Shown here in pieces: positions 4,466 to 43,357 of a stretch of DNA of 61,352 bases. Both the position numbers and the translations under genes were made by a program. How positions within the stretch are numbered: position 1 is the stretch's first letter; each line of letters begins with the position of its first letter. Below the pieces are notes generated by a model that was not told where the DNA came from, searched no databases, and saw only the letters and a list, made by a program, of their open reading frames with translations. Source of the DNA: a virus (taxonomy: Duplodnaviria > Caudoviricetes); the IMG/VR virus record IMGVR_UViG_3300032087_000329, positions 1 through 61,352 of that record; one strand, 5' to 3'.

Positions 4466-5082
4466 TTAAATGGATATCCTAAATTCCAACACACTAAAGA
4501 GTGTCTTATTCCTTTTGTAACTGGCTTTACTCTATGCCAAACAAAAGAAGGAAAAACAATTATACTACCTTTTTCTCTTATTTCTTTACATATTCTTGGC
4601 TGAGAACCTTTGTCTGTATTTCTAAAATCAAACTCTAGATCGCCACCTTCATATTCTTTAGGATCGGTAAGTGATACGGTCATACTTAGTTTTCTTAGCT
4701 TACCATGTACATTTTGATTTTCTGGTTGATCGTATGGTTCTTCATGTGAATCACAATGCCAGTCATAAAATTGATCTTTTTTATACTCAGTAAATTGACA
4801 AGCCTCTGACCAATCCCATTGAAAATTCCATCCAGCACTTGCATTTGCTTGATAAATATAGGGTTGTATTTCCCTATATATCCATCGGTCTGACATCCAA
4901 ACAACATCAGACTTGCGTTTCTTTTGTATATTTTTTAGTTCTGTATTAGATAGATTTTCTTTTTGTGAATTACCTGTAAGAGCTATTTCTTTATTTTGCT
5001 CTTCACCATAACGCACTATTTCATCACATATTCTTTCTGGTATAGCTGACTGAAAGTACCAGTAATACCATTTTAGATTCAT
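4462..5082 (-). CDS. 2OG-Fe(II) oxygenase (prolyl 4-hydroxylase/PKHD-like)
   Basis: YDWHCD, RKLSMTVSL, YEGGDLEF, FPSFVWHRVKPVTKGIRHSLVCW. Confidence 0.88.
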   Translation of the reverse strand: MNLKWYYWYFQSAIPERICDEIVRYGEEQNKEIALTGNSQKENLSNTELKNIQKKRKSDVVWMSDRWIYREIQPYIYQANASAGWNFQWDWSEACQFTEYKKDQFYDWHCDSHEEPYDQPENQNVHGKLRKLSMTVSLTDPKEYEGGDLEFDFRNTDKGSQPRICKEIREKGSIIVFPSFVWHRVKPVTKGIRHSLVCWNLGYPFK

Positions 5083-5094
5083 TTTATATGGTGG

Positions 5095-6105
5095 TTAATT
5101 TGTCCAAGTACCAGCTTTTACAAAATCGTAAACTTCATCTAAATTCCAAACTCCTGAAGCTCCAGATACAAAATCTACTTCAGGTTCTTTAGTTATAACC
5201 ACACCAGAACCACCATTCGTGCTTGAACCACTTGGTGCAGGTGTTGCTGCTCCTGCTCCTCCAGCTCCAACAGTAATAGTATAATTTGTACCACCTACAA
5301 CAGTAAGTGTGGATTCAGCTGATGCTCCACCTCCAGAGTTTTCTCCTGGCACAGAACATCTATAACCTCCAGCTCCACCACCGCCACCAAAGTTTTGGAA
5401 GCCAGTAATACCATCTGTCCAACCGCCACCGCCACCGCCAGTATTAGCTGTACCGCTAGTGCCTGTATAACCTTGGTTGCCTCCATTTCCACCACCACCA
5501 GATCCACCAGAACCTGTTTGTAATGGAGAATTAACATAGTTGCTTGAACCACCGCCACCACCTGCTCTAGTCACGGGTGATCCTGTTATTGATGATGCGA
5601 CACCAGCACCACCGTCTCCACTTTTTCTAGGTGGTGAATTATGCGGTTGATGGTTTTGTCCTACGGCACCTGCACCGCCACCGCCACCAGAAAGGTCTGC
5701 TCCTTGATGAGCCCCTCTTGTACCAGCACCTCCATTAAAACCTTGACCAGCTGTTCCAGTACCAGTAGCGTAACGACCTCCTCCGCCACCAGAACCTCCA
5801 GGTTGTGTTCCAGGATTAGGTAGAAAATAACCTGTATCACCACCACCTCCTCCAGTTGAAGTAACAGTTGTTATAGGTGCTCCTGCTATAGAAGAGTCTC
5901 CGCCTCTTGAACCAACAGTAAATGTTGGAGCTACAGGATGACCTCCACCACCACCGCCACCTGCGATAATAAGGTATTGTAGTTCTGTTGTGTGTGTTGC
6001 TGTAGTTAAAGTACCACTAGAATTAAAAGTAGTTATTACTTCACTTTGAGTGCTTGTTGTTGGGTCATTATCTGGACCAATTATTCCACCATTACCAATT
6101 GACAT
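5095..6105 (-). CDS. Glycine-rich tail fibre/receptor-binding protein
   Basis: Many poly-Gly tracts; YLIIAGGG, GTANTGGGGG, GGSGVVI; C-terminal SGVWNL..VY; start 6105 preferred over 6123. Confidence 0.75.
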   Translation of the reverse strand: MSIGNGGIIGPDNDPTTSTQSEVITTFNSSGTLTTATHTTELQYLIIAGGGGGGGHPVAPTFTVGSRGGDSSIAGAPITTVTSTGGGGGDTGYFLPNPGTQPGGSGGGGGRYATGTGTAGQGFNGGAGTRGAHQGADLSGGGGGAGAVGQNHQPHNSPPRKSGDGGAGVASSITGSPVTRAGGGGGSSNYVNSPLQTGSGGSGGGGNGGNQGYTGTSGTANTGGGGGGWTDGITGFQNFGGGGGAGGYRCSVPGENSGGGASAESTLTVVGGTNYTITVGAGGAGAATPAPSGSSTNGGSGVVITKEPEVDFVSGASGVWNLDEVYDFVKAGTWTN

Positions 6106-24049: not shown

Positions 24050-24736
24050 ATGGTAGATTTACATCGAATCTATAATTATAGTCCCGATAATATAGCTCCC
24101 GAGCTTGTAAAAGCGACACAAGATTATGTGCTTGTTCCCGAAGAAAACTTTATGCCGACCGAAGAAGTTAAAGCATCGGTTTTAGATTTTATCGAAGAAC
24201 CAGCACCAGATATTATTAGTTTCCCATTTTTAACACCAGAATATTGTGCCGATCTAGTAGATTTGTGCGAAGCAATCGGAAAGTTTGGCCATAGACCAGG
24301 AGACTCTTATCCTGCTCCTGAAATGGATTTAAAAGATATATCACCTTATATAAATACAACACACATCCAAAATATCGAGAAACACATTCTACCAATCGCA
24401 TGTAGTAAATGGGCATTTCCTTTAGTTTGGTTATCATCGGCGTTTGTGGTTAAGCACAGCATGGATGGGCAGATTGGCAATCCTGGATGGCATCATGACG
24501 GTTTGGCAGACATCTCATTGTCAGTCCAACTCAACGACGACTTCGAAGATGGTGGTGTTTATTTTGAAAACCAAAAATTTGGTGCTGGTAATTTACCTGT
24601 TGGTCATGCCATTTTATTTCCCTCGCGAGTGACGCATCGCCACACGGCACTTAATATTACGCAAGGAAAAAGATATTCTTTAACTTATTGGATGAAAGGC
24701 GATATTCCAGAAGATCGATCAGCCAGAACCACGTAA
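24050..24736 (+). CDS. 2OG-Fe(II) oxygenase resembling the lysyl hydroxylase (PLOD) C-terminal domain
   Basis: AFVVKH...WHHD...LNDDFEDGG.YF...GHAILFP..THRH....TQGKRY. Confidence 0.8.
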   Translation: MVDLHRIYNYSPDNIAPELVKATQDYVLVPEENFMPTEEVKASVLDFIEEPAPDIISFPFLTPEYCADLVDLCEAIGKFGHRPGDSYPAPEMDLKDISPYINTTHIQNIEKHILPIACSKWAFPLVWLSSAFVVKHSMDGQIGNPGWHHDGLADISLSVQLNDDFEDGGVYFENQKFGAGNLPVGHAILFPSRVTHRHTALNITQGKRYSLTYWMKGDIPEDRSARTT

Positions 24737-24737
24737 A

Positions 24738-25142
24738 TTATCTCCTTTCTCTAAGCTCACTGGACGAAAATCCATGTTGACGACTGTTATAGTAAATATA
24801 TTTTTTAGGATCATCTTTATACTCATCACGACCAGTGTAAGGAGCATTTTTATACTCTTCCCCGATAATCCTAACATCCCATTGTACACCAGCTAAAATA
24901 TCTAATACGTCCTGCTCAGTTTCGTAAACTAGAACTTCATCAACATATCGACATCCTTTAACTTGTAGTTGTCGTTCTACAATATTTTGTACAGGTTTAT
25001 TTTTCTCTGGTCTATCTAAACTAGGATCTCTCTGTATACAGACTATCATGTAATCGCATACAGTATCTGCTTCTTGTAGCATTAAGACATGCCCAGCGTG
25101 AAATAAATCAAAAGCACCGAATGTTATTCCTATTTTATTCAT
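24738..25142 (-). CDS. Cytidylyltransferase (TagD/glycerol-3-phosphate CT-like)
   Basis: HIGH-type motif FDLFHAGH; C-terminal FSSSELR. Confidence 0.85.
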   Translation of the reverse strand: MNKIGITFGAFDLFHAGHVLMLQEADTVCDYMIVCIQRDPSLDRPEKNKPVQNIVERQLQVKGCRYVDEVLVYETEQDVLDILAGVQWDVRIIGEEYKNAPYTGRDEYKDDPKKYIYYNSRQHGFSSSELRERR

Positions 25143-27246: not shown

Positions 27247-27533
27247 AGAAATCTATTTTTTACTTTCTTGATTCCTTTAGTTTCGAGCCAATCTCTATAT
27301 TCTTCGTTAGTGAGATGTTTTTTCTCTTGTTCTACTTGTAGAGCGTCATAATAATGACCCTCTCCTATTTTGCATCTTCGTATAATCTGATGCACCCTTT
27401 GTTTAGAAATGTTAAATTTATCACCAATGTTTTCCATAGTTAAACCTTGTTTATACATATCAAACATTTCTTTATTTCTTTTTAAGAAGTTGGTAGCCAA
27501 CTCTTCGTTTATACCTTGCATTAATTGCTCCAA
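27243..27533 (-). CDS. HTH DNA-binding protein (sigma70 region 4-like)
   Basis: GLTMENIGDKFNISKQRVHQII. Confidence 0.75.
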   Translation of the reverse strand: MEQLMQGINEELATNFLKRNKEMFDMYKQGLTMENIGDKFNISKQRVHQIIRRCKIGEGHYYDALQVEQEKKHLTNEEYRDWLETKGIKKVKNRFL

Positions 27534-29401
27534 AATTTATTGTGATCAACAGTAGCTGTTCCCCATGTATCACCTATCTCAGCATCTACTTTTGAAGGAA
27601 CATCTAAATCGACACAAGTTTCCATTATTTCCACAACCTTTCTGCTTTCTTCTTTATTTTTAACAGATATGTCCAACTCATCATGTACTTGGATGTGTGG
27701 GACTATACCCTCGTTCCATAAATCTACCATGGCTTGTTTTGTCATATCTGCTGCACTGCCTTGTATCAACCTATTAAATGCTCTATAGGTGTATGCTCGG
27801 CGAATGTTTCCACCATACTCTTCGTATGCTTTATCATACGGCAACGGTGTGTCTTTCTCGTTTCTTGGTTCGTATAAATCAAAACGACATCGTCTATCTA
27901 ATAATGTCGTAATATAACCAACATTTTCTGCTCTTCTAGAGCATGCTAATGTCAACTCTTTGATAAAAGGTACTTTTGAATGATAAGTGTTAAATAACAC
28001 GTCAGCTTCTAGTTCGTTGATACCTAATGCATTAATTAGTTTAGCTTTACCCATACCATAGCTTAAAGATAAATTAATTACTTTAGCATCTTTTCTAGAT
28101 ATTCCTGCCATATCTGCTACAATCTGATGAAAGTCAGCATCCTCATGGCGATATGCTTGCACTGCTTCATCAGCACCAGGAAGTTCCATTTGCGATGCAT
28201 AATGTACGGTCAATCTAGGTTCTTGTTGTGAGTAATCGAAGGCTCCCCATTTATGTCCTTCTTCAGGCAAAAATAATCCACGAACTAGTGGACCTAACAC
28301 TGGATCACGAGCAGGAACTTGTTGTAAATTGGGTGTGCTATAACTAAACCTACCACTAACAGTCCCACCAGAATCCCCACGTAAAGGGTGCATTTGTCCA
28401 TGTATCCTGCCGTTATGTGCATGTTTTAAAATCATATTTTCTATAAACGCACTTCTAATTTTCTGTAGTTTTCTTGCTTCAACTATAAGTTTTGGCAATC
28501 CATGGTTTAAACTTTCTAACCATTTACCAGTGAAACTTGGAGCATTAGTTTTCTTAGTTCTAGGATATGTTAGACCAGCTTTATCGAATGCTTTTGCGAC
28601 ACTAGCAGATGCCCATACATCCACATCTACACCATACTTATACTTTATTTGTTTTACGCATTCGTTTTCTTTAATTTTTAATTCTTTTGCCGATTGTTCT
28701 GCCTTATTTTCATCAACACGCACACCGTTCCATCGCATCTCTACAAGCAAAGGAATAAGACTAGATTCAAGTTCATAGATACTGTGTAAATTCTCTATAT
28801 CCATTAATTTACTCAATTTATCCCACAGTTTTAGAGTCAACAGAGCGTCTTGTTCAGCATAATGCCCTACATACTTAGCAGGAAGTCTCCACATTTCTGA
28901 CTTTGCGTCAACTCCATAGCTGTTTGCTGCTTCAATGAGCAATGTTTCATCTTTTACATCACCACAATATTCTTCACCTAATATATTTAAAGAGTATCTT
29001 CGTTTGTTTTCGTCAACTAACGGAGCAGCAATTACAGTGTCATGTATTTTACCATTAATTTGTATTCCTTCTCGTTTTAGCCAACCTACATCGTACAAAG
29101 CGTTGTGAAATATTTTATCACAACTACCTGATAATGTTTTGTTCACCCAGCGTTTTACTAAACCTTCATCTAAATTACCACCACCCTCATGTCTTATAGG
29201 TAAGTACCCAGACCATGTGTCTGTAGCTATTGCAAAACCAGTGACGTATCCATCTCCAGTTGCCCATCCTGGACCAGAAGTTATTAAGTTAGGATCTTTA
29301 GTTTCTAAATCTATAGCTATACGTTTAGCTGATGATAAATCGGGCAATGTATCAGGAGCAGTCCAGTCAGATTTAGGAGGAAATAAAGGCATGGTTCTCA
29401 C
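27521..29401 (-). CDS. polA: Family A DNA polymerase with 3'-5' exonuclease domain
   Basis: DLET, FHNALYD, SGRFSYSTPNLQQ, DYSQQEPR, AKVINLSLSYGMG, IQGSAAD, VHDEL. Confidence 0.95.
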   Translation of the reverse strand: MRTMPLFPPKSDWTAPDTLPDLSSAKRIAIDLETKDPNLITSGPGWATGDGYVTGFAIATDTWSGYLPIRHEGGGNLDEGLVKRWVNKTLSGSCDKIFHNALYDVGWLKREGIQINGKIHDTVIAAPLVDENKRRYSLNILGEEYCGDVKDETLLIEAANSYGVDAKSEMWRLPAKYVGHYAEQDALLTLKLWDKLSKLMDIENLHSIYELESSLIPLLVEMRWNGVRVDENKAEQSAKELKIKENECVKQIKYKYGVDVDVWASASVAKAFDKAGLTYPRTKKTNAPSFTGKWLESLNHGLPKLIVEARKLQKIRSAFIENMILKHAHNGRIHGQMHPLRGDSGGTVSGRFSYSTPNLQQVPARDPVLGPLVRGLFLPEEGHKWGAFDYSQQEPRLTVHYASQMELPGADEAVQAYRHEDADFHQIVADMAGISRKDAKVINLSLSYGMGKAKLINALGINELEADVLFNTYHSKVPFIKELTLACSRRAENVGYITTLLDRRCRFDLYEPRNEKDTPLPYDKAYEEYGGNIRRAYTYRAFNRLIQGSAADMTKQAMVDLWNEGIVPHIQVHDELDISVKNKEESRKVVEIMETCVDLDVPSKVDAEIGDTWGTATVDHNKFWSN

Positions 29402-29919
29402 TCTGTTGCTCCGTAAGATTTAACTAAATAACCTAATAATGACTTGCCTCTCTTGTTTAAATTCATATCAACTAATTTTTCTACACCATTACTAAAAACT
29501 ACATTAACGTTTGTGTTTCCTAAACTTCTTTGATTTACACAATACAGCAAAAGTTCAAACAGATCAGATTGTTTAAAATACTCTTGTTCTTCTGCATCTA
29601 AATCGTAATCTACACCTAGTTCTTCTTCTATTTCTTTTTCGACCCTGCGTAATTCACACGCTAAATCTTTGTTATTCCATTTAGTCGGAGCTGGCATATC
29701 TCCAGTTCTTTTTTCAGCCACATCGTGACTTAATGCTTTTAGAAGTGCTACTTTACTTATATCAGGTTTTAACCAATTTAGAATAACTGCAACTCCCCAT
29801 GAATGATTAGCTACTGTTTGCTCACCGATAGTTTTCATAGTGTGATAACGTTTAACTTCGCCACCACTTAAAATGTCTATTAAATTTTTTACTTTTTTAG
29901 ATTGATCTATACTCATCAC
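29398..29919 (-). CDS. HD-domain nucleotide phosphohydrolase (YfbR-like)
   Basis: KRYH...TVANHSW...LSHDVAE..TGD.P.P.K. Confidence 0.8.
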   Translation of the reverse strand: MMSIDQSKKVKNLIDILSGGEVKRYHTMKTIGEQTVANHSWGVAVILNWLKPDISKVALLKALSHDVAEKRTGDMPAPTKWNNKDLACELRRVEKEIEEELGVDYDLDAEEQEYFKQSDLFELLLYCVNQRSLGNTNVNVVFSNGVEKLVDMNLNKRGKSLLGYLVKSYGATE

Positions 29920-30598
29920 ATATTCCTATTTTACCATAATGACACCAGCGACAATTTTTTACACTTGCATTTGCTGGGTATTCTTTAGCTTCTGTTAGTT
30001 TTAATGCTCGTTCATGGAACATTCTTTGTCGTTCTTTTATTTCTTCTACTGTATACGAGTGTCTAGATATTTTACCATGATCTAAATACCATAATTCTGC
30101 TTGTATATTCTCTACCGAAGGATCACGATTGTATGTTGCAGATGCATATAAGGCACATTGTTGTTCGTGGGACTCTTCGTTGCCCATATATCTACCTGTT
30201 TTGAAATCTATGACTACTGTGCGATCGGGTTTTTTAACGTATGCGTCTATTTTATACCTGCACCAAGTATTATTTTCTTTCCATCCACTAGGTTGCCAGT
30301 CTAAATCAAACGCCCAATCTTCTTCTACGGAAACTTGACCATCTATATAACCTTGTCTTAACTCCTCAAAACCTAGTTCAAACATCTGTAAACCTTTAGT
30401 AAGTTCACCTTCACCTTTTATGTAATTTTCTGCCTCTATATGGATGTTAGTTCCTCTAGTAGCAGCAGGATGCTGAGGAGTTGGTATTTTTTCTATGCTA
30501 GAGTAATAATACCTTTTAGGGCATTGCTCAAACACAGACAATCTACTATACGACCATGTTGTCAACATTTTCTCCTGATATCTTAGTTGGACCACCAT
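29897..30598 (-). CDS. PD-(D/E)XK exonuclease (RecB/Cas4-like)
   Basis: WSYSRL...CP, KID, DFKTG, C-terminal CRWC...C; real start is probably the internal MLTTWSYS. Confidence 0.8.
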   Translation of the reverse strand: MVVQLRYQEKMLTTWSYSRLSVFEQCPKRYYYSSIEKIPTPQHPAATRGTNIHIEAENYIKGEGELTKGLQMFELGFEELRQGYIDGQVSVEEDWAFDLDWQPSGWKENNTWCRYKIDAYVKKPDRTVVIDFKTGRYMGNEESHEQQCALYASATYNRDPSVENIQAELWYLDHGKISRHSYTVEEIKERQRMFHERALKLTEAKEYPANASVKNCRWCHYGKIGICDEYRSI

Positions 30599-31634
30599 CT
30601 TTTGTAGGTGTTTCCACTAAACTAGGCTTTAATCTTCGTTGTAACCATTCTATACAAGCTATACTCCAATCTTCTGCTTTACAAAACTCTTTTAAGACAG
30701 AGATTGCTCCTTGTGTGTTTTTATCTTTATGCATAAACCATGCTTTATGCATAGGTTGAACCACATGTATAAAAAACGGATGTTCAAATCTCCATTTTTC
30801 TTCTGTATACTTATGAAACTTATCTAAATCTTCCTCAAACGATCTTACTGAGTCATCGTCTGATGTAAGCATAGGATACGGAGAAATATCGTCATACGGA
30901 CTTCCAGTCATAGGATATTTTAAAGCGTAGTAATCTACTTCAGGAAGTCTTTTTTCCATCTCGTTATACACATCTTCATAAACATGGAAACTGTCACTAA
31001 TTTGATTGTAGACACCTACGTCTACACCTATTTTTGCTGCCATATACTCTTGCAACATAGACATATGAACTGCGTTTGCACCGTATGCTCCCCAAATCAT
31101 ATCGTTGGATCTACAACAAACAGTCATGTTTAACTTATTGTTTCTTATTTTAAAATATATGTGTGTATTACATGGCGTGTCTTTAGTGTCACGATCTAAA
31201 TCTCTTACACAATCCCACATTGCTAACACACATCTTCTGTCTGTAGGATCATTTTGTAATCGGTTTGCTATAATGTCTAGCTGGTCTTTTTGAAAAAATC
31301 TTTTCCATCTATACCCATATGCTCCATTAAGTGTCACACCGTTATCACTGTACTCAGCCATGCGTTTGTTGTACTTCGTTAGGAAATGTACGTCATCCCT
31401 GCCAGCTAACATCCATAAACTTTCCATAAAATGAAAGAATGGATTAGCATCACGAGGTTCCCAAAAAATTACACGCTGACATGGATTTCTATATGTAGTT
31501 ATCACTGGACCATCGTACTCTAGCGTTGTACCTGCTCTACTTTCTTGTTTACAGATATCTCCGTCCCATCTGAATAAATCTATACCTAATATAAACGCTT
31601 CATGTACATTATCACAATTTATTATTTTCGCCAT
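30546..31634 (-). CDS. Thymidylate synthase-family enzyme, probably dUMP hydroxymethylase
   Basis: GAYGYRW, DRRCVL.MWD, catalytic PCN, RSNDMIWGAYGAN with Asn at the dUMP-specificity site; neighbours match 5hmdU phage clusters. Confidence 0.8.
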   Translation of the reverse strand: MAKIINCDNVHEAFILGIDLFRWDGDICKQESRAGTTLEYDGPVITTYRNPCQRVIFWEPRDANPFFHFMESLWMLAGRDDVHFLTKYNKRMAEYSDNGVTLNGAYGYRWKRFFQKDQLDIIANRLQNDPTDRRCVLAMWDCVRDLDRDTKDTPCNTHIYFKIRNNKLNMTVCCRSNDMIWGAYGANAVHMSMLQEYMAAKIGVDVGVYNQISDSFHVYEDVYNEMEKRLPEVDYYALKYPMTGSPYDDISPYPMLTSDDDSVRSFEEDLDKFHKYTEEKWRFEHPFFIHVVQPMHKAWFMHKDKNTQGAISVLKEFCKAEDWSIACIEWLQRRLKPSLVETPTKDGGPTKISGENVDNMVV

Positions 31635-31643
31635 TGTTTTCTC

Positions 31644-32981
31644 CTATATTTCTTTTGACAATTTAAAAAAGTCTGACATAACTTCTTCTGTTTTATTTAT
31701 AACTTTATCAGAAACCTCACCTACCTTTAGATCTTTGTAAAATCCTGTCGGCATATTAAACGCTAGTGAAATGTATTGTTGAGCAACTCTTTCTCTTTCA
31801 AAATCAGCTAACAGTGTATAGTTAGCTTCATGTATTTCATTAGATAAATAGTCAGGTAGATTACATGTTTCTTCTATCTTTTCAGCAAACTCTAACGGAG
31901 TAGCATCATGAGGAACCATCATATAGTTTTCATATGGTTTAAACACCTCTCCTACACCGTCTTCATTAGTGGATATACCGAAATTTCTAGCTATAGGTAT
32001 TGCTCCCTCTATTATTCCGTCTACAACTACACGGTTAAAATGGTCACCAACCTTTGCATAAGCCACAGACCAAGAAGGATCTATAACTACTTTAGATTGC
32101 CTTAATAGATGGCGTATTGTTGGTTGACTTAAATAACCTAACCACTCCATACCATGCTCTAACGCAACATCCCATATTTTTCTACCATAATAAATAGGAT
32201 CTATGTCTGGATCTTTTTCTTCTGAAACAAAATATTGTGGTTTACATTTATCTACAGAAGTCATGTAGTTATGCTCTATACCACCACCAGCCATAAGTTT
32301 ACGTGTATTTTTAGACACATGTGGTATAGCTCTAACTAAGTCATCCACATGTTTCCAGCCTTTAAAGGTCTGCATAGATATAAAACTATTTTTTCTATTT
32401 TTCCAATCATTACGTCTAGTTAACGAAGCTAAATCCTGCGGATTAAATATTAAAGCTCTTGGCACATCTAACACACTAGCACCATGATAAGCACATGGAT
32501 GTACACAAGCCAATCCATGTAAATGTCTAGATATTTGATGTATCCATGGATAACTTTTTTCCATATTACCGTCGTGAATAATAGCAACTTGTCTTATATC
32601 TTGAGGTAAATCGTATAATGCTAACCAATCTGTATTGCCCTCATTATCTCTTTGTTTTGTAGGAACAGGTATTTGCCATATTATCATATCATAATCATCT
32701 ACAAATCTTTTCCACCTTTTTAAATTCCAGTCACCTTTATAGGCAAATCTGTTAGCAGCAGGAAACAACCATCCTTTACCTTGATGCACTGGTATACCAG
32801 ATGCACCAGTCTCGTACTCATCTGTATTTTTAGTAGTTTTACTTTTGACACTTTCTCTCCAGATAAGTTCTACAAAATTTACATCGTGTCCCTGTTGTTT
32901 TAGACCAGCTATAAGTTGTTCGTTATGATTAATAATCCCACCTGGACTATTAATACCATACATAGTAATTAATATCTTCAT
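31644..32981 (-). CDS. GT-B fold glycosyltransferase-like protein
   Basis: MKILI...PGGI N-terminus; WKHVDDLVRAI; WLGYL...VIDPSW...FNRVVVDGI..G.IPI. Confidence 0.7.
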   Translation of the reverse strand: MKILITMYGINSPGGIINHNEQLIAGLKQQGHDVNFVELIWRESVKSKTTKNTDEYETGASGIPVHQGKGWLFPAANRFAYKGDWNLKRWKRFVDDYDMIIWQIPVPTKQRDNEGNTDWLALYDLPQDIRQVAIIHDGNMEKSYPWIHQISRHLHGLACVHPCAYHGASVLDVPRALIFNPQDLASLTRRNDWKNRKNSFISMQTFKGWKHVDDLVRAIPHVSKNTRKLMAGGGIEHNYMTSVDKCKPQYFVSEEKDPDIDPIYYGRKIWDVALEHGMEWLGYLSQPTIRHLLRQSKVVIDPSWSVAYAKVGDHFNRVVVDGIIEGAIPIARNFGISTNEDGVGEVFKPYENYMMVPHDATPLEFAEKIEETCNLPDYLSNEIHEANYTLLADFERERVAQQYISLAFNMPTGFYKDLKVGEVSDKVINKTEEVMSDFFKLSKEI

Positions 32982-33289
32982 TCTTCGCTCTCCTTTTTAA
33001 TTGATGTGACATGCTCTTCGACTAATAGTAGATAGCGACGTAAATCTTGTATATCATCTAAAATACCTTCTTTTCTATCGTCATCATAATACGCTTGAAA
33101 CACATCATAGTTATATCCTAAGACTTGGTTTTCTATTCTGTCCCATTTACGTGCTAGCATCATAAATGCACCAACGCCACCTCTTCTTCTCCAAGAGTCT
33201 CCGTAAGATTTACCAGCTTCTTCTAGTTCAGTGACATCTGTTTGTGCAATGCCACGCATTTTTTCAAACGGTGTAAATAAATTGCTCAT
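32978..33289 (-). CDS. Nucleotide modification-associated domain 1 (Nmad1/DUF1599-like) protein
   Basis: KSYGDSW..RG....MLARKWDRI...DDIQDLRRY. Confidence 0.7.
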   Translation of the reverse strand: MSNLFTPFEKMRGIAQTDVTELEEAGKSYGDSWRRRGGVGAFMMLARKWDRIENQVLGYNYDVFQAYYDDDRKEGILDDIQDLRRYLLLVEEHVTSIKKESEE

Positions 33290-33978
33290 AATTCTAACTC
33301 CTTCATTTTATCTTTAACCAAACCCAGTCCAGGATTTGTTCTATGTAATATTAATGTTGTGACATGCCAACTAAATCTAAACTTGGTGTGATAATGCCAG
33401 TCGTTAAATTTTCTAGCTAACGCCATACCTAGTTCTCTAAAACCTTTTTTGCCTAAATGTAGTTCTATAGCAACTTGTTCAACATAGTCTGGTATGTCTT
33501 TTTGAAACATGAAATTATATTCACCACCCTCTATGTCTACCTTTAGCACTTGTGGTTTATGTATATCTAATTTTTGCCAAAAGTTTTCTGCTTGTACCGT
33601 GACAACCTCTCTGTTCTTTACAGGAATATGTGTATGGCACGTAGGATAAGTTTTAGATAAATAAAATTCAGTTTCTATGTCGTCATGACCTGTAAGAGCT
33701 GAATTATACAAACTTGTTTTCTCATTGTTTACATTCATAACTGCAAGTGCGAAACTCTCTGGCGTTGGTTCATAGGCATATACATGTTTAGCACCGTTTT
33801 TTAACGCTAAATCTGTAAAACACCCTATGTGTGCACCCACATCCATAACAGTTTTATCTTTAAAGTCTAGTTTAGCATACTGAGACTGTTCGTTTATTAC
33901 AAAAAGTTCTCCCAACTCTGGTCTATACCATAAACCAGACTTTTCGTCTTTTTCTATTTTTGCATTAAGTTCATCCAT
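33286..33978 (-). CDS. FkbM-family SAM-dependent methyltransferase
   Basis: VMDVGAHIG.F, YAYEP, LKVDIEGGEY. Confidence 0.85.
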   Translation of the reverse strand: MDELNAKIEKDEKSGLWYRPELGELFVINEQSQYAKLDFKDKTVMDVGAHIGCFTDLALKNGAKHVYAYEPTPESFALAVMNVNNEKTSLYNSALTGHDDIETEFYLSKTYPTCHTHIPVKNREVVTVQAENFWQKLDIHKPQVLKVDIEGGEYNFMFQKDIPDYVEQVAIELHLGKKGFRELGMALARKFNDWHYHTKFRFSWHVTTLILHRTNPGLGLVKDKMKELEL

Positions 33979-34055
33979 TACTTTTGCTCCTTTATGTACG
34001 CATATATTATTAATAACAACAGTCCTAAAACTGCTAGAAAACTTATGTCTATCAT
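33978..34055 (-). CDS. Single-TM micro-protein (25 aa)
   Basis: MIDISFLAVLGLLLLIIYAYIKEQK; ATGA and TAATG overlaps fill the gap exactly. Confidence 0.5.
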   Translation of the reverse strand: MIDISFLAVLGLLLLIIYAYIKEQK

Positions 34056-34885
34056 TCTACACTCCTCTTATATAATGATCTAGGTTTACCCTGACCAAGT
34101 CTAACACGTTCATATTTATCGAACTCACATAAAGAATGTTCAATATCTCTCATCTCTAAATCTGGAACTTGCCCATGTAAAAAATCTGGACTAGCTTTTA
34201 AAAGTTCTCGCATCTCAACTATATTCTGACCACTTTTTACATGTTTGTCAACAGGTCTGTTATATATTCTGTTTAGACCACGTTTTGCTCCTGGTCCAGG
34301 ATTTGCCCAGTCCATAATATCATCGGCGTTTTCTCCTACCCATGTGTGTCTCCAGTCAGTGACAACCTCGTAAGCCATAAATGGACCCATGTATGGATAA
34401 GGTAGTAAAACTTCCCATAATTTACGTAAAGAATTTTTAGCTTCGTGTATATCGTCTAGAAACTTATTATGGTTTTTCATAATCTGATCTATACACCAAC
34501 AAACTCCTGCTAGTTTATCCATTCCGTTAGGTGTTTTTATTATGTATGCTCCAGTAATCCATTGTGGTTGATCTTTCATAACTTTATAGCATAGGTCACT
34601 ATCCCAAAACCTATGTAAATGGTGTTTCTTTAAAACTTCTCCTGTAGCGATAAGATTAAACCATCTAAAAATTATAGTGGCTAGTATAACATCCTGTTCA
34701 TCTTTTAAAGGATCACGTATATTTTCTCTAAACCATACTGTTGTTTTATCGTTCTCTCTAAACACATTAGTAAATTTATATTTTTGCAGAATAGGATCTT
34801 CTGTCCAAGGAAACTCTTGACCACGTAATCTACGTAGGTGTATCAAATGTCTTTCGTTTATAAAATTAAAAAAATTACTGTACAT
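34052..34885 (-). CDS. 5-hmdU DNA kinase family protein (aGPT-Pplase1/HMUDK helical domain)
   Basis: PWTEDPILQKYKFTNVFRENDK, GPFMAYEVVTD, NPGPGAKRGL, DIEHSLCEFDKY. Confidence 0.8.
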   Translation of the reverse strand: MYSNFFNFINERHLIHLRRLRGQEFPWTEDPILQKYKFTNVFRENDKTTVWFRENIRDPLKDEQDVILATIIFRWFNLIATGEVLKKHHLHRFWDSDLCYKVMKDQPQWITGAYIIKTPNGMDKLAGVCWCIDQIMKNHNKFLDDIHEAKNSLRKLWEVLLPYPYMGPFMAYEVVTDWRHTWVGENADDIMDWANPGPGAKRGLNRIYNRPVDKHVKSGQNIVEMRELLKASPDFLHGQVPDLEMRDIEHSLCEFDKYERVRLGQGKPRSLYKRSVE

Positions 34886-34893: not shown

Positions 34894-35322
34894 CTAGTGG
34901 TTTTGTTCTTTTAGTTTTCTAGCTTTCATCGTTGCATAAGAAACATCGTGGTGTTCGTTATAAGATTTTATAAATTCTTCGAATCCTGCCATGACCCTTC
35001 TATTTTCATGGTCAATACAATCGAGCCTATGTTGTTCGTCGCGTAATTCTACAGCTTCCCATACATCATTATCAATAGGTATGTCGTCTAAAGTATAACG
35101 ACCATTACCCATTACATAAGTTTCGTCTTTTTTGATAGAGTTTTCGACTTTTGATAAACTTCTAGGTCCACCTTGCGAGTCAAGTTCTTTATAAACGCCT
35201 TTTCTATCTATACAGTATTGTTTTACTTGGCATTTTCTACTACAAAATTTTCTTTGTTTTCCTATAAGTGGGTTATCACATCCAGGTATGCAACATTTTA
35301 AATAGTTTACTTTTTCACTCAT
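34894..35322 (-). CDS. Zn-finger hypothetical protein
   Basis: CCIPGC...FCSRKC; start moved to 35322 because a promoter overlaps the longer ORF start. Confidence 0.6.
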   Translation of the reverse strand: MSEKVNYLKCCIPGCDNPLIGKQRKFCSRKCQVKQYCIDRKGVYKELDSQGGPRSLSKVENSIKKDETYVMGNGRYTLDDIPIDNDVWEAVELRDEQHRLDCIDHENRRVMAGFEEFIKSYNEHHDVSYATMKARKLKEQNH

Positions 35323-35329
35323 GACCACA

Positions 35330-35358
35330 ATCATACTATAACTCCTATACAATGTAAA
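35330..35358 (-). promoter_or_regulatory. Conserved phage promoter upstream of the modification cluster
   Basis: CTCC-TTTACA-N17-TATGAT. Confidence 0.65.
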
Positions 35359-35363
35359 GGAGT

Positions 35364-36872
35364 TCATAGGATTGGTTTAAAAAATTTAGACGTAGACGGC
35401 TGAACTATATGTAAGTTTTTTCTAGTTCTAGTTACAGCTACGTAAAACGCACGATTTTCGCCATCTGGTCTAGCGTATAGTTCGTTAGCAGTTTTAACAG
35501 ATATATCTGTAAACACTACCACATTGTCTGCTTCTCCACCTTTTGCTGCATGTATAGTAGATAAACGTATTCTAGGTTTTGTAGCTTTTTCTCCTCTACG
35601 TAAACAAGCTATAAGGTATTCTCTTTGCTGTGCTCCAACTCTATCAAAAGCCTTGTGCCATATTTCATCAGTCAGGAGTCCATGTTTTTCTTTTAGTTCC
35701 TCTATGTCGACTAACTCTTCTTCTGAAAGTCCAGGAAGTTTTTTCTTTCCTTTCGCTACACCTTTTCCTACTGACATAAAGTAATAAATGTCTCGAACAC
35801 TACTTACAGACACTTTACGTTTTTTACGAAGCAACTCCCAGTTGCCTATAGCATCTAACAATCCTTGTTTTACAGACAGCTTGTTATTTTTAACGTAAAT
35901 GAAACCAATTTGTTGCAAAAATTTTTCAACACGATTTAAGATGTAACCGTTGCGTGCAAGCACTAACCAATCTCCATCAGAAAAGTCAATATGCTCATGG
36001 GAAACGTGAATAAATATCTTACCCTCTACTGATCTAGGGTTCCAAGATTTTTCTCTTCTGTTTTCTTTAGGTATTCTATTTAAGATTGCTTGTGCTAACT
36101 CGTGCACTTTTTTAGGAATTCTATAAGAGTTTTCTAGAACAGTGACGTCGCCCTCTAGTTGTATAAAAGAGTTTACATCTGCTCCTGCCCATTGGTAAAT
36201 TGCTTGATCGTCGTCGCCAGCAACATGTACATTCTTTACTCCTTGTGCCAACTTTTTAATACATTCCCACTGTAGTTTAGATAAATCCTGTGCCTCATCA
36301 ACAATTAATACATCTAAACTTGGTTTACTTTTATCACGAACAAAAAGATATAACATATCTGTGTAGTCTTTTAAAAATCTTTCTTCTTTAAATTTTTCTA
36401 AACTTGTACAAAACCAATGTACATGGTTCCATGGTATATCTACTCCTGACATTTTCCACTGTTCTTTTACGGATACTTGTTTGTTTCTAGCTATGTTTTC
36501 TATAAAAAGCATTTGATCACCTTTTGATAAACCAAACACTGTACCCTCTTCGGTTTTAAGTTGACCGTTTAATGGCTCTCCCATAATTTTACTAAATTCT
36601 TTATAGTGTGTTCTAGCCATTATGTCTGATGTTTTTAACCCTAACCAATTATAACAAAGTGAATGTATAGTTCTAAAATACACTAACTGTTTTCTATCTA
36701 AATTGAATCTATAACTTGCTCTTTCTAACGCTTCGTTTGCAGCTTTTTTAGTAAACGCTAAATAACCTATTTTGTGAGGCTCCACACCGTTTTGCAGATA
36801 ATCTTCTGTAAGATTAAGGAGACTGGTAGTCTTACCTGTTCCTGGTGGTCCAAGTATAATGTTCCAAGTCAC
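35364..36872 (-). CDS. UvrD/Rep-like SF1 helicase
   Basis: GPPGTGKT, DEAQD, GDDDQAIY, STIHAAKGGE, YVAVTR. Confidence 0.92.
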   Translation of the reverse strand: MTWNIILGPPGTGKTTSLLNLTEDYLQNGVEPHKIGYLAFTKKAANEALERASYRFNLDRKQLVYFRTIHSLCYNWLGLKTSDIMARTHYKEFSKIMGEPLNGQLKTEEGTVFGLSKGDQMLFIENIARNKQVSVKEQWKMSGVDIPWNHVHWFCTSLEKFKEERFLKDYTDMLYLFVRDKSKPSLDVLIVDEAQDLSKLQWECIKKLAQGVKNVHVAGDDDQAIYQWAGADVNSFIQLEGDVTVLENSYRIPKKVHELAQAILNRIPKENRREKSWNPRSVEGKIFIHVSHEHIDFSDGDWLVLARNGYILNRVEKFLQQIGFIYVKNNKLSVKQGLLDAIGNWELLRKKRKVSVSSVRDIYYFMSVGKGVAKGKKKLPGLSEEELVDIEELKEKHGLLTDEIWHKAFDRVGAQQREYLIACLRRGEKATKPRIRLSTIHAAKGGEADNVVVFTDISVKTANELYARPDGENRAFYVAVTRTRKNLHIVQPSTSKFFKPIL

Positions 36873-39491: not shown

Positions 39492-40256
39492 TTAAAACGG
39501 AGTGTCTTCGTTGGCTGTTTTTACGGAACCAGAATTTACATTCTGACTAAACTGTTTAGCAGCAGAATAAATAAAGCTATCCTCACTTCCTAATTGTTCA
39601 TCCATAGCTACATCCCAACCATACCATGATCCCTGATCATTTTGTTCTATCACTGAAGTCAATTTATATTTGTGAGAAAACGTAGGTGGTGTAAACACAT
39701 TGCCATCTTTTGTTCTTATTTTAAGACCAGACATTATAGAATTCCACTTCTTAGACTTTTTAAGTTGGCTACCACCAAAAGCAATAATCGCTTGGCTAAA
39801 CCCACCTGCATTATCTAATACGAGTACATAATGATTGGCTGTAGTTGCTATTAGATTACCATTTTCTAAATAATCTTGACCTTTGTCACTTCTTACAACT
39901 TTACTTAAAATTTCAGAACTTTCATGCACACCTGCTAGACCTTTTCTATCAGGTAACCACTCTAAAAAATTACGTTTATACGCCACTGGTACCACTGTGA
40001 CACCCTCTGCACCTTTGTACAATGTATTATCAACAGTGTTAAATATATCTCCTTGCTCACAACCAGCTATGTGTTTACCATCACGAGCATTAACCTGTGG
40101 GCTCATAGCTTGTATAATTCGCAAGAACGGAATAGCTAAATCTTCTGAAGATACATTCTCCAGACCAGAATTAGCATCTGCCATCATATCGTTAACATCT
40201 AACGACAAATCGGTATTTTGTTTCTTTGTTATTGGTTTTTTTACTTCATCATTCAT
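39492..40256 (-). CDS. Putative single-stranded DNA-binding protein
   Basis: DLAIPFL.I.Q.MSPQ, SQLKKSKKWN, acidic C-terminus EDTPF. Confidence 0.6.
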   Translation of the reverse strand: MNDEVKKPITKKQNTDLSLDVNDMMADANSGLENVSSEDLAIPFLRIIQAMSPQVNARDGKHIAGCEQGDIFNTVDNTLYKGAEGVTVVPVAYKRNFLEWLPDRKGLAGVHESSEILSKVVRSDKGQDYLENGNLIATTANHYVLVLDNAGGFSQAIIAFGGSQLKKSKKWNSIMSGLKIRTKDGNVFTPPTFSHKYKLTSVIEQNDQGSWYGWDVAMDEQLGSEDSFIYSAAKQFSQNVNSGSVKTANEDTPF

Positions 40257-40263
40257 TTTTTAT

Positions 40264-40830
40264 TTATCCTTTAGTTATTTTAGTTTTTTGACCTACATAT
40301 ACATTAAAGACATCAAACGGGAGGTCTGTACCATTTTCAACCTGTTCACGTGCAAACGCTTTGAGAGTCATAGGCTCTACCCAACGTTTGTTCGTAGGAG
40401 CGTACCCTTGAGCAATTAAACTCTCAGATACAGAAACAGCAGATTCATCTTCGCCTCTACCAAACTGTACAGAAATAACATTTTTTATAATGTCTTCATG
40501 TCCATTTTGTTTAAGCCATGCAAATGCTTCTGCTTCTCTTTCCTTTCCTATACGTGCAGAATAAAACTGCTGTACAGAAACTTTTGAACCATCTGCTAGT
40601 TTAATCTCTGATAGATTACATTCACGCATAGCATCTGGTAATTTTTGTTCTACTATATCTTTTAGTTTTTTCTTTTCGTCAGCTAACTCTTCCTCTTTTT
40701 GTCTGACTAATTCTTCTAACCTTAATTGTTCTTGAGCCCAAAAAGATACTTCTTTTAGACTATCATTTTGGGGAGTGTTGTCCATGTTTGGTGTGGCATC
40801 TTCTTCCCATACGTTTTTTAAATCTGACAT
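40264..40830 (-). CDS. Conserved replication-module protein
   Basis: AFAWL..NGH.DIIKN...VEPMTLKA. Confidence 0.6.
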   Translation of the reverse strand: MSDLKNVWEEDATPNMDNTPQNDSLKEVSFWAQEQLRLEELVRQKEEELADEKKKLKDIVEQKLPDAMRECNLSEIKLADGSKVSVQQFYSARIGKEREAEAFAWLKQNGHEDIIKNVISVQFGRGEDESAVSVSESLIAQGYAPTNKRWVEPMTLKAFAREQVENGTDLPFDVFNVYVGQKTKITKG

Positions 40831-41366: not shown

Positions 41367-41395
41367 TTTACTATTGTGTATTTATAGGTTATGAT
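41367..41395 (+). promoter_or_regulatory. Conserved phage promoter (rightward member of a divergent pair)
   Basis: GTCC-TTTACT-N17-TATGAT. Confidence 0.75.
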
Positions 41396-41423
41396 TTGCG
41401 ATAACTATAAGAAAGGAGAGATT

Positions 41424-41915
41424 ATGAACATATTTTACGTATATAAAGACCCAGCTCATGCTGCTATCTGTTTACCAGATAAACTAGTAGTTAAAATGCC
41501 TTTAGAGTCAGCTCAAATGTTAAGCACTGCTCATCGTGTACTTAACGGTGACGAATGGTGTGACCTTAACGGTGTATATAAAACTGCTCACCTTAACCAT
41601 CCTTGCACTATATGGACTAGAGAATCACTACAAAACTACAGGTGGCTCTACTATCACTTTTTTGCTTTATGTCAAGAGTACAAAACTAGATACGGTAGAG
41701 AACACCTTAGTTATACAAAACTTAACGAAGTATTGTCTAGTGCCCCTGCTAATATTCCAGACATAGGTATAACTCCTATGCCACAGGCTATGCCCGATGA
41801 GTATAAAAATTCTGATCCTGTTAAAGCATATCGTGATTACGTAGTTAACGAAAAACATTATGCAGAGTGGAATAAATTACCTGACAGACAACCAGATTGG
41901 TGGACTACAGCATGA
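41424..41915 (+). CDS. Pyrimidine-dimer DNA glycosylase/endonuclease V-like protein
   Basis: MNIF...DK.VVKM.LESAQMLST, H.NHPC..W, EY..RYG..H, PQAMPD; AAGGAG RBS before 41424. Confidence 0.8.
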   Translation: MNIFYVYKDPAHAAICLPDKLVVKMPLESAQMLSTAHRVLNGDEWCDLNGVYKTAHLNHPCTIWTRESLQNYRWLYYHFFALCQEYKTRYGREHLSYTKLNEVLSSAPANIPDIGITPMPQAMPDEYKNSDPVKAYRDYVVNEKHYAEWNKLPDRQPDWWTTA

Positions 41916-43357
41916 CAAAAGCATTTGTATTTAAAACTGAACCATACGAACACCAACTTACAGCATTACAAGAAAGTTGTGATAAAGAAAACTTTGCATA
42001 TTTTATGGAGATGGGGACTGGTAAATCAAAAGTGTTAATTGACAATATAGCACATCTCTACACTAAAAAGAAAATAAATGCTGTTGTTATAATAGCACCT
42101 AAAGGTGTGTATCGTAATTGGGCACAAAGAGAAATACCTATACATTTACCAGATCACATAGATAAACAAGTATATTTGTGGACAGCTAGTGATTCAGGTA
42201 AAGCTATGAAAGAGAAAGAAGATTTATTAAACAGTTCGCCTGAATTAAAAATATTGGTCATGAATGTAGAGGCTTTGAGCACTACTAAAGGTGTCAAATT
42301 TGCATGGAAACTTATAGCTAATAAAGACACGTTAATGGCTGTTGATGAAAGCACGACTATAAAAAATCCTGGAGCTAAACGTACTAAAAATGTAATCAAG
42401 ATAGGTAAGTATTGTCATTATCGTAGAATATTAACTGGATCACCTGTCACTCGATCACCTTTAGACGTATACACACAATCACAGTTTCTAGATCCTGCGT
42501 TGTTAGGGTTTAGTTCTTATTTTGCGTTTAGAAATCGTTATGCTTTATTAGTGGATAGACAAGCAGGTGGTAGAAGTTTTAAGCAAGTTGTCGGTTTCCA
42601 GAATTTAGATGAGCTTAATGAACAGTTACAAAAATTTAGCTATAGAGTATTAAAAGAAGATTGTTTGGATTTACCAGATAAAGTTTATATAAGACGTGAG
42701 ATAGAAATGTCACCTGAACAGAAAAAAGTATATAAAGAAATGAAGAAGTATGCTATTTCTGAGCTATCAGGCATAGGCACAGTTTCTGCATCTTCAGTCA
42801 TTACACAAATAATACGTTTACATCAGATATCTTGTGGGTTTGCATCTACAGATGATAATGAAATAAAAGACATACCTAACAGTAGAACTGATGAACTGAT
42901 GCAAATATTAAGTGAAACTGAGGGTAAAGTTATTATATGGGCAAACTATAGACACGACATACAGAGATTACATGGACTTATAAGTAAAGAGTATGGTGAA
43001 AATTCTGTAGGAACATATTATGGAGACACGTCTGATGTAGATAGAGAAGAACTTATAACTAAGTTTCAAGATAAAGATAATCCATTGCGTTTCTTTATAG
43101 GTAATACACAAACAGGTGGGTATGGTATTACACTTACTGCTGCAAACACAGTTGTGTATTTTTCTAATAGTTATGATTTAGAGAAACGTTTACAATCTGA
43201 AGACCGTGCTCATCGTATCGGTCAGACCAATAAAGTCACATATATAGACATAGTTTGTAAAGATACAGTTGACGAAAAAATAGTACAAGCATTAAGAAAC
43301 AAATTAAACTTAGCTCAGACAGTTTTAGGCGAAGAGGCTTGGGAAGACTGGTTATAG
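41897..43357 (+). CDS. SNF2-family helicase
   Basis: EMGTGKS, DEST, LTGSP, GGYGITLT, QSEDRAHRIGQ. Confidence 0.9.
   Translation: MVDYSMTKAFVFKTEPYEHQLTALQESCDKENFAYFMEMGTGKSKVLIDNIAHLYTKKKINAVVIIAPKGVYRNWAQREIPIHLPDHIDKQVYLWTASDSGKAMKEKEDLLNSSPELKILVMNVEALSTTKGVKFAWKLIANKDTLMAVDESTTIKNPGAKRTKNVIKIGKYCHYRRILTGSPVTRSPLDVYTQSQFLDPALLGFSSYFAFRNRYALLVDRQAGGRSFKQVVGFQNLDELNEQLQKFSYRVLKEDCLDLPDKVYIRREIEMSPEQKKVYKEMKKYAISELSGIGTVSASSVITQIIRLHQISCGFASTDDNEIKDIPNSRTDELMQILSETEGKVIIWANYRHDIQRLHGLISKEYGENSVGTYYGDTSDVDREELITKFQDKDNPLRFFIGNTQTGGYGITLTAANTVVYFSNSYDLEKRLQSEDRAHRIGQTNKVTYIDIVCKDTVDEKIVQALRNKLNLAQTVLGEEAWEDWL

Follow-up and report, generated by a model that had tools for sequence, protein, structure and literature searches.

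A phage replication operon predicted to direct kinase-independent, probably sugar-bearing, thymidine hypermodification

The IMG/VR record IMGVR_UViG_3300032087_000329, from a virus of the Caudoviricetes, contains 61,352 bases, is rated 100% complete by CheckV and represents an entire phage genome. This whole stretch is called the window below. Its replication operon probably encodes a pathway for thymidine hypermodification that does not depend on a kinase. In the reading that we favor with reasonable confidence, 5-hydroxymethyldeoxyuridine (5hmdU) is made before replication and then O-glycosylated directly in DNA, and an FkbM-family methyltransferase provides variable tailoring; we infer the sugar, the linkage and the acceptor alike. 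Orthology and active-site residues suggest that in the first step a thymidylate synthase (TS) homologue would make 5-hydroxymethyl deoxyuridine monophosphate (dUMP). An HD-domain enzyme would deplete thymidine nucleotides, and the polymerase PolA would build DNA with 5hmdU for T. In the second step, a GT-B glycosyltransferase (GT) would take a sugar from a nucleotide-activated donor and attach it to 5hmdU in DNA, directly at the 5-hydroxymethyl group. The context in 80 viral loci and the predicted fold suggest that the product would be a base-J-like O-glycoside. In a third and less secure step, the FkbM enzyme would O-methylate the attached sugar, to an outcome that varies between related phages. 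A further protein of the operon, HMUDK_hel, probably binds or flips 5-substituted uracil in DNA.

The gene context of the GT (445 residues, 31644-32981, minus strand) carries this reading. An alignment-based search found relatives of the GT on 254 viral contigs. The best 80 loci were kept, and all open reading frames (ORFs) within 6 kb of the GT were clustered. A protein of about 450 residues is located beside the GT in 57 of the 80 loci, and its representative matches Tet_JBP (E = 1.2e-15). The TS homologue is present in 15 loci, none of which is among the 57. The eight loci with neither protein are cut, or belong to G019, a record with a TS homologue further away. HMUDK_hel is found in 12 of the 80 loci, all of them TS-type, and a 13th TS-type record (G055) has it 14 kb from the GT. 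HMUDK_hel accompanies the TS route, not the GT. In the first 15 viral loci, which came from a single-protein search, HMUDK_hel adjoins the GT wherever the locus extends upstream, and the TS homologue is present in all that extend downstream, including six in which the GT is only 38-44% identical.

The GT sequences are divided along the same line. In a quick maximum-likelihood tree, the 57 TET-type GTs and five from cut loci are separated from the 15 TS-type GTs and three others by a branch of length 1.09, with a Shimodaira-Hasegawa-like approximate likelihood ratio (SH-aLRT) support of 100. Two unrelated routes thus lead to a 5-hydroxymethyl group on uracil, each with its own GT subfamily, and this is the strongest evidence that the acceptor is 5-hydroxymethyluracil (5hmU) in DNA. 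The location of GT relatives beside TET/JBP dioxygenases speaks for a sugar being added straight to the 5-hydroxymethyl group, as in T-even phages and base J, and against displacement of a phosphate. A single GT family that is cleanly split between TET/JBP and TS partners links the post- and pre-replicative routes to modified thymine.

The dioxygenase partners were examined in 50 whole records. Tet_JBP is above the cut-off in 42 of them, and the eight misses are the loci with neither protein and one TS-type record. No C5 DNA methylase was found in the same 50 records, including the complete 169-kb record G021. By a published argument, a phage TET/JBP enzyme without a C5-methylase is a thymine dioxygenase (available parts of PMC13229309 and bioRxiv 10.1101/2023.12.21.572611). 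Clusters with Tet_JBP and the GT are also carried by phages of about 170 kb (L053, L070, L085, L088, L101 and others), which encode PolB, RecA-like and DnaB-like proteins and a peptide deformylase. The order in these phages is Tet_JBP, small ORFs, a cytidylyltransferase-like gene, the GT, two conserved proteins of about 230 and 450 residues, and DUF6267. This Tet_JBP/GT set looks like a widespread cluster for post-replicative thymine glycosylation.

The sequence of the GT matches Glycos_transf_1 (PF00534) with 29.1 bits against a cut-off of 26.4. At E ≤ 0.001 it has 443 homologues, all metagenomic and partly from marine surveys. A PDB sequence search gave no match at E 1. The DNA of the cluster matched cultured phages only in a 110-base stretch of PhiJL001. 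A structural model was built from 42 sequences, with a mean predicted local distance difference test score (pLDDT) of 95.1. The model has a GT-B fold composed of two Rossmann domains. The closest structures in Foldseek are the retaining GT4 enzymes BshA, HepE, MshA and PimA (E = 1e-13); among viral models, they are a GT of Bacillus phage SP-15 and entries named ‘DNA alpha-GT’. In VIA-align, GT4 enzymes and the T4 alpha-GT align over 304-346 residues with Z scores of 24-27. The top entries, effectively tied, are 6eji (26.9), TarM (26.5) and the T4 alpha-GT on HMU-DNA (1y8z_B, 26.1, 333 residues aligned). Retaining GT4 enzymes are marked by an E-x7-E motif. Region 312-326 of the GT reads G-D-H-F-N-R-V-V-V-D-G-I-I-E-G, with G312, H314, N316, R317 and G326 invariant in the alignment. 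We propose, from the gene context and the modeled fold, that the GT is a candidate DNA 5-hydroxymethyluracil glycosyltransferase. Since the GT shares its fold with the retaining GT4 enzymes and the T4 alpha-GT, the sugar is probably alpha-linked.

The same structural neighbors could be read in another way, with the GT and FkbM acting on host surface glycans, a virion protein or a small molecule, and the DNA containing only 5hmdU or plain T. The nearest structures include teichoic-acid, bacillithiol and lipid glycosyltransferases, and JGI annotates the relatives as ‘glycosyltransferase involved in cell wall biosynthesis’. Glycans and polyketides are the usual substrates of FkbM enzymes. Against such a target, the GT is translationally coupled within a replication operon, and in the model comparison the T4 alpha-GT on HMU-DNA is among the three best matches. 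The GT also adjoins an enzyme for hydroxymethyl-pyrimidine in 72 of the 80 loci, by two unrelated and non-overlapping routes, and the other eight are mostly cut. We consider a target other than DNA distinctly unlikely.

Direct glycosylation of DNA would draw on 5hmdU supplied by the TS homologue (362 residues, 30546-31634, minus strand; PF00303, E = 4.6e-23; phrog_5131, E = 1.6e-113). The protein is 41-43% identical to PhiJL001 gp24, PaMx11 gp51 and YuA gp17. HMUDK_hel, the TS homologue, the HD protein and PolA are 31-50% identical to those of the same three phages and are arranged in the same order, which bears out the reading of an earlier note on this DNA as a thymidine-modification cluster and places it in the M6/YuA/PaMx11 lineage. 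M6-type relatives carry bases derived from 5hmdU (available part of PMC8989533). In HMMER alignments, the catalytic Cys of the TS homologue is kept. The residue at the position of N177 in Escherichia coli TS is Asn, and it is Asp in the cytidine monophosphate (CMP) hydroxymethylase MilA. We take the N177-equivalent residue of TS to discriminate between uracil and cytosine. The TS homologue is most likely a dUMP hydroxymethylase, as judged from these residues and relatives.

It is highly improbable, in our view, that the TS homologue makes a different 5-substituted pyrimidine nucleotide, be it thymidine monophosphate (dTMP), a 5-hydroxy or another derivative, on which the GT would then act. Such products exist in the TS superfamily. 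Its members include deoxycytidine monophosphate (dCMP) hydroxymethylases as well as a synthase for 5-hydroxy-dCMP, which RB69-like phages then arabinosylate (available part of PMC13390438). The best PDB sequence match of the TS homologue is itself a CMP hydroxymethylase (E = 1.7e-20). The presence of Asn, not Asp, at the base-discriminating position argues against this, as do the identity and synteny with the YuA, PaMx11 and PhiJL001 enzymes. In addition, HMUDK_hel is known only from 5hmdU phages.

Two smaller proteins appear to belong to the same 5hmdU module. The HD-domain protein (173 residues, 29398-29919, minus strand) resembles the YfbR 5'-deoxynucleotidase (PF12917, E = 1.3e-15; NF003009, E = 6.2e-13). 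It is syntenic with PaMx11 gp52, YuA gp18 and Pam3_53, and we propose that it drains the pool of dTMP and thymidine triphosphate (dTTP). The second is a conserved protein of 103 residues (32978-33289, minus strand), which has no Pfam match even at E 10 and no PHROG or NCBIfam match. It had been labeled Nmad1 in the earlier note, a name that we equate with DUF1599. The label was not confirmed: a search of the record for PF07659/DUF1599 found nothing even at E 10. Its sole basis is a lead from a language-model feature search (Atlas), which placed the protein at 0.97 beside a viral cluster with DUF1599 in 25% of its members. The 103-residue protein is 48% identical to Pam3_54 (‘nucleotide modification’), which is located between the HD protein and PolA in the complete M6-type cluster of Pam3. 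In L014/L016 the protein is 59% identical, whereas the GT is merely 38% identical. These comparisons indicate that it belongs with the core 5hmdU module rather than with the sugar step.

HMUDK_hel (277 residues, 34052-34885, minus strand) matches PF18723 (E = 5.9e-51), in agreement with the family named in the earlier note. The score is 173.9 bits against a cut-off of 25, and the match spans positions 4-277 of the 281 in the profile. Its closest cultured homologue is PhiJL001 gp19 (49.8% identity), and it is 45% identical to PaMx11 gp50. GenBank depositors call the phage homologues ‘aGPT-Pplase1’; the names aGPT-Pplase and Nmad reportedly go back to Iyer et al. in 2013. HMUDK_hel corresponds to PaMx11 gp50 and YuA gp14, the gene after the kinase. 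The kinase, PaMx11 gp49 or YuA gp13, is a separate P-loop protein of 189 residues that was experimentally defined as a 5-hmdU DNA kinase (available part of PMC8989533). The 277-residue “HMUDK” protein comprises no more than the helical domain and is no kinase.

No kinase was found elsewhere. PF18748 and PF18747 (HMUDK_HMUD1, HMUD2) and PF02223 (Thymidylate_kin) have no matches at E 1 in the complete record. The PF18748 model is weak, since PaMx11 gp49 itself is found only at E 0.002, and the negative therefore rests mainly on a Walker A scan and a protein search. The scan covered all stop-to-stop frames of the record. Its sole good motif is in the UvrD-type helicase (35364-36872), and two weak motifs are in frames of 521 and 176 residues. 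A search with the PaMx11 kinase gave no match in the complete relatives G001 (62 kb) and G002 (68 kb) or in PhiJL001, and PaMx11 itself was found. Neither the PaMx11 kinase nor the amino acid:DNA transferase exceeded the cut-off in G001, G002, G003 and PhiJL001; both were recovered from PaMx11. The Cys-rich ORF of 157 residues (34894-35367, minus strand), located where PaMx11 and YuA have the P-loop kinase, was considered as the missing enzyme and ruled out; it is without a Walker A motif and without a family match.

The route assumed in the earlier note, with pyrophosphorylation of 5hmdU by a ‘5-HMUDK’, is not borne out: the protein is confined to the helical domain, and a P-loop kinase was found neither in the record nor in its complete relatives. 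A fuller form of this route, in which the HMUDK-family protein (pyro)phosphorylates 5hmdU in DNA and the GT displaces the phosphate by a sugar or phospho-polyol, is very unlikely. It has in its favor that the Pfam family is named after the 5-hmdU DNA kinase. In addition, the domain is fused to the kinase in one protein of SP10 (PMC5889632 Table 3, available part) and in most of its long homologues. Opposed to it are the restriction of the protein to the helical domain, the lack of a P-loop kinase also in PhiJL001, and the relatives of the GT that work beside dioxygenases making just a hydroxymethyl group. The chemistry differs as well. GT-B enzymes use activated donors and hydroxyl acceptors, and to our knowledge they do not displace phosphates.

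Fusions of HMUDK_hel were surveyed in 92 long homologues. Most combine Thymidylate_kin with HMUDK_hel, and others contain MazG and MazG_C, or MT-A70. Examples are P0144, P0195, P0219 and P0130, and some fusions are on contigs of 2-4.7 Mb, which suggests that cells carry the domain too, in combination with several catalytic partners. Clade-1 HMUDK_hel persists in genomes without the kinase and without the transferase. Its role is thus not merely to help those two enzymes.

A model of HMUDK_hel from 30 homologues (pLDDT 89.7) has a helix-hairpin-helix fold like that of DNA glycosylases. A PDB sequence search gave no meaningful match. Foldseek matches are weak but coherent (overall E 0.15-1), and archaeal Ogg, PaMx11 gp46 (PUGT) and a queuine-salvage glycosylase are found at E 0.15-0.4. 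The top match in VIA-align is PaMx11 gp46/PUGT (8z2n_B, Z 11.4, root mean square deviation 3.9 over 220 residues). It is followed by QNG1 (Z 10.9), archaeal Ogg/AGOG (about 10), and MutY and AlkA (6-9); Z scores below about 13 can be unspecific for helical proteins. Two motifs, G197-P198-G199 and L-C253-E254-x-D-K-Y, are invariant in the 30 diverse homologues. They are also invariant in an eight-sequence alignment that includes the PhiJL001, PaMx11, YuA and Pam3 proteins. With its helix-hairpin-helix fold, HMUDK_hel is a paralogue of the amino acid:DNA transferase, and it probably acts on 5-substituted uracil in DNA, either as an enzyme or by flipping the base. Predictions of a complex between the GT and HMUDK_hel scored 0.00, 0.44 and 0.00 against a mark of 0.32 and were not used for or against binding.

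This relationship raises the possibility that HMUDK_hel itself is a transferase. Cys253 would attack C6, the 5-substituent would be expelled and a nucleophile added, and the base would not be a simple O-glycoside. The leaving group might be water, or a group from the GT or from a donor activated with cytidine diphosphate or adenosine diphosphate (CDP/ADP). The closest modeled similarity is indeed to a glycinyltransferase, PUGT, and the L-C-E-x-D-K-Y motif is invariant in both sets of homologues. A profile alignment to PaMx11 gp46 sets C253 over Cys247 of PUGT and E249 over Glu243, which are the catalytic residue and a metal ligand, respectively (available part of PMC11472151). This alignment is not significant (E = 0.26), and the Z score of 11 is within the range of unrelated helical proteins. 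The ADDT model also weakly matches PhiJL001 gp19 (E = 7.8e-4). However, the clade-1 paralogue gp55 is dispensable in the M6 reconstitution (available part of PMC8989533), and no amine-handling enzyme is present in the window. The TS-type GT records G019 and G020, both incomplete, show no HMUDK_hel. Overall, we regard a transferase role for HMUDK_hel as unlikely and retain direct O-glycosylation by the GT.

The absence of the amino acid:DNA transferase, noted earlier from the sequence of the window, was confirmed. Its model PF18724 (ADDT) has no matches at E 1 in the complete record, and the positive control PaMx11 gp46 scores E 1.6e-27. No pyridoxal phosphate (PLP) or radical S-adenosylmethionine (SAM) families were found among about 75 ORFs scanned in the window, again as the earlier note had stated. 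A GT and a methyltransferase are in place of the transferase, so that the different end product proposed there is likely, and it is probably sugar-bearing.

The donor of the sugar may be unusual. A cytidylyltransferase-like protein (134 residues, 24738-25142, minus strand; PF01467, E = 2.4e-13) is encoded 5 kb from the cluster. It also matches rfaE_dom_II (E = 1.2e-16), the heptose-1-phosphate adenylyltransferase domain of RfaE, and TagD (E = 2.8e-13), a glycerol-3-phosphate cytidylyltransferase, both below the cut-offs. Its best PDB match is an ethanolamine-phosphate cytidylyltransferase (E = 4.9e-20). In 13 loci, of which 12 are TET-type, a homologue is the next gene upstream of the GT; in the close relatives L024, L025, L029 and L031 it is about 8 kb away. 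The gene is absent in the complete relatives G001 and G002. In a characterized system, 5-hydroxymethylcytosine (5hmC) received one or two heptoses through the joint action of a cytidylyltransferase, a HAD/APH enzyme and a GT-B DNA glycosyltransferase (available part of bioRxiv 10.1101/2023.12.21.572611). By analogy, the gene in the window may, as an accessory, supply a special donor of the heptose type or CDP-alcohol type, which is only a guess. Given this gene and its homologues upstream of the GT, the phospho-polyol suggested earlier is a conceivable end product. Genes for sugar nucleotides (HAD, sugar kinase, isomerase, epimerase) were not among the families reported for the rest of the window.

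The FkbM-family SAM methyltransferase (230 residues, 33286-33978, minus strand) is well above the cut-offs of Methyltransf_21 (PF05050; 47.7 against 22.7 bits, E = 2.5e-12) and TIGR01444 (62.9 against 37.7 bits, E = 4.2e-17). The gene is present in eight of the 80 GT loci, all TS-type. It is absent in L007, and it is behind PolA in L013 and L018. In L006, L008, L009 and L011 (at about 5060-5570), FkbM is only 37-38% identical and its neighbors are 72-75% identical, which suggests cassette exchange of a tailoring enzyme. Two viral proteins annotated as FkbM match the GT model structurally, and fusions of GT-B and FkbM are implied. FkbM would be a variable sugar O-methylase, the weakest step of the proposed pathway.

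A number of observations weigh against the pathway. The Tet_JBP neighbors were classed as T-dioxygenases from the absence of a C5-methylase only, and most of the records are fragments that are 3-44% complete. Sequence alone cannot separate the TS homologue from a dTMP synthase. A dCMP deaminase, which PhiJL001, PaMx11 and YuA have, was not found in the record. HMUDK_hel is the best-conserved partner of the TS homologue, yet it has no defined reaction in the scheme. Several TS-type loci have no FkbM gene, and the enzyme might act on something that is not the sugar. The GT sequence matches only the general GT4 family, barely above the cut-off. A tblastn search with the GT gave no match in 50,697 cultured-phage records, which indicates that there is no known isolate with this GT.

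A more specific version of the pathway is possible but doubtful. In this phage lineage, most or every thymine would be replaced by an alpha-linked and O-methylated glycosyl-oxymethyl-uracil, a base so far undescribed in any organism and formed without a kinase. The substituent would be a methylated hexose or heptose, or else a phosphorylated sugar or alcohol delivered by a CDP/ADP donor that the phage makes. HMUDK_hel would serve broadly to flip or activate 5-substituted uracil, and evolution would have paired it successively with kinases, MazG, MT-A70 and, in this phage, the GT.

Thymidine hypermodification of the 5-HMUDK and amino acid:DNA transferase type was reportedly described by Lee et al. 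in 2018 and 2021. The clusters of the Pseudomonas phages M6/YuA and PaMx11, Salmonella phage ViI, Delftia phage PhiW-14 and cyanophage Pam3 resemble the window in their core of clade-1 HMUDK_hel, the TS homologue, the HD protein, a small protein and PolA. Systems of the M6, PaMx11, ViI and Pam3 type are defined by a kinase and an ADDT/aGPT-Pplase2 protein, and the window has neither. It also lacks enzymes of the PLP, radical-SAM, FAD and acetyltransferase kinds and carries FkbM and the GT-B glycosyltransferase in their stead. The closest cultured analogue is gp19-gp24 of PhiJL001, an Alphaproteobacteria phage (Keylargovirus), with a kinase-less HMUDK_hel, a GT and a TS homologue in the replication module. 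Unlike the window, PhiJL001 has TAGT (PF20691, GT-A type) followed by Nmad5, and it has no FkbM and no GT-B. The GT-partnered cluster without a kinase is most likely a variant of known thymidine hypermodification, in which direct glycosylation replaces the kinase and transferase steps.

Phage clusters that combine TET/JBP (5mYOX) with GT-B enzymes are related through the GT. The window GT forms a sister subfamily and is 40-48% identical to the Tet_JBP-adjacent GTs of the phages of about 170 kb. The latter often have the same cytidylyltransferase-like gene directly upstream, a homologue of the gene in the window. In TET/JBP clusters a dioxygenase introduces the hydroxymethyl group at selected sites of already replicated DNA. 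In the window it would be made before replication by the TS homologue, presumably at every T. Phage T-dioxygenases of clade C2 often adjoin GTs (available part of PMC13229309). Published phage GT-B enzymes resemble BshA and MshA, and one of them needs a cytidylyltransferase for heptose (Pyle et al., bioRxiv 10.1101/2023.12.21.572611, available part). GT-B genes beside TS homologues, and GTs beside T-dioxygenases, were already reported in surveys (available parts of bioRxiv 10.1101/2023.12.21.572611 and PMC13229309). Some of the 80 loci may be the same contigs as those of the published GT53, GT66, GT94 or 5mYOX89.

Glucosylation of 5hmC in T-even phages follows the same logic. A hydroxymethylase of the TS family acts on the nucleotide pool, and a DNA glycosyltransferase acts later; the T4 alpha-GT is structurally similar to the GT model (Z 26.1). 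Compared to the T-even system, the base in the window would be uracil and not cytosine, as indicated by Asn in place of Asp. The GT has no sequence similarity to the T4 GTs, and HMUDK_hel and a methyltransferase are added. Kinetoplastid base J, made by JBP1/2 and JGT, belongs to the same proposed class of products, in which a uracil of the DNA carries a sugar on its hydroxymethyl group. Base J is a known sugar-bearing thymine derivative, and phage surveys suspect others. The window has a retaining-type GT-B enzyme that would act after 5hmdU is made by the TS homologue. JGT, in contrast, is a GT-A enzyme that makes a beta-glucoside, and its 5hmU comes from oxidation of thymine (available part of PMC13229309). 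In the open literature, short of subscription journals and supplements, we found no report of a phage making sugar-bearing 5hmdU by the TS route. The cluster and its relatives define a minimal gene set of the TS homologue, the HD protein and the GT, with HMUDK_hel and FkbM as optional members. If the pathway is confirmed, a methyl-capped DNA glycan would have consequences for restriction evasion as well as for type IV restriction and GmrSD-like sensing, and the enzymes could serve for labeling 5hmU.

The genome has about 35% G+C, and its minus strand carries nearly all genes. The genes of the cluster form a single tight minus-strand run with start/stop overlaps of 4 nucleotides, so that the operon and nearly all genes named in the earlier note are retained; the Nmad1 label is unconfirmed, and “HMUDK” is not a kinase. 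In transcription order, the UvrD-type helicase is the first of the features described here, ahead of the 157-residue ORF. A hydrophobic micro-ORF of 25 residues (33978-34055, minus strand), read from the sequence, is located between HMUDK_hel and FkbM, with overlaps ATGA at the HMUDK_hel stop and TAATG at the FkbM start. Among seven relatives examined, it is retained in the two nearest (L004 and L017) and absent in L005, L006, L008, L009 and L011. Downstream of the TS homologue is a PD-(D/E)XK, Cas4-like nuclease (233 residues, 29897-30598, minus strand; PDDEXK_1, E = 8.2e-20), which is kept in close relatives only. PolA (626 residues, 27521-29401, minus strand) is a family A DNA polymerase with a 3'-5' exonuclease (DNA_pol_A, E = 6.2e-57; DNA_pol_A_exo1, E = 1e-11). 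It falls outside the interval 29398-34885 to which the cluster was earlier assigned.

Several other genes of the window are of note. Two proteins belong to the 2OG-Fe(II) oxygenase family, one at 24050-24736 (plus strand) and one from another scanned ORF (E = 3.8e-5 and 1.3e-14); neither is Tet_JBP in the scans made. A small plus-strand island at 41391-43357 encodes a DenV-like pyrimidine-dimer DNA glycosylase (E = 5.3e-8) and a SNF2-family helicase. The window also encodes members of the Pam3 gp32, gp33 and gp34 families (39492-40830, minus strand, and one further ORF). Together with the Pam3_54 homologue, they tie the phage to the freshwater cyanophage Pam3. A homologue of CsgG, the curli secretion channel, is encoded at 654-1469 on the minus strand (PF03783, E = 9.4e-48), and one of 42 other scanned ORFs matches CsgF (E = 2.2e-17). 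At the other end of the record, 58799-60559 (minus strand) encodes a protein of 586 residues with a CHASE2 sensor and an adenylate/guanylate cyclase domain (E = 1.7e-23 and 3.7e-21), an unusual cargo for a phage. This gene would neighbor the CsgG region if the genome is circularly permuted.

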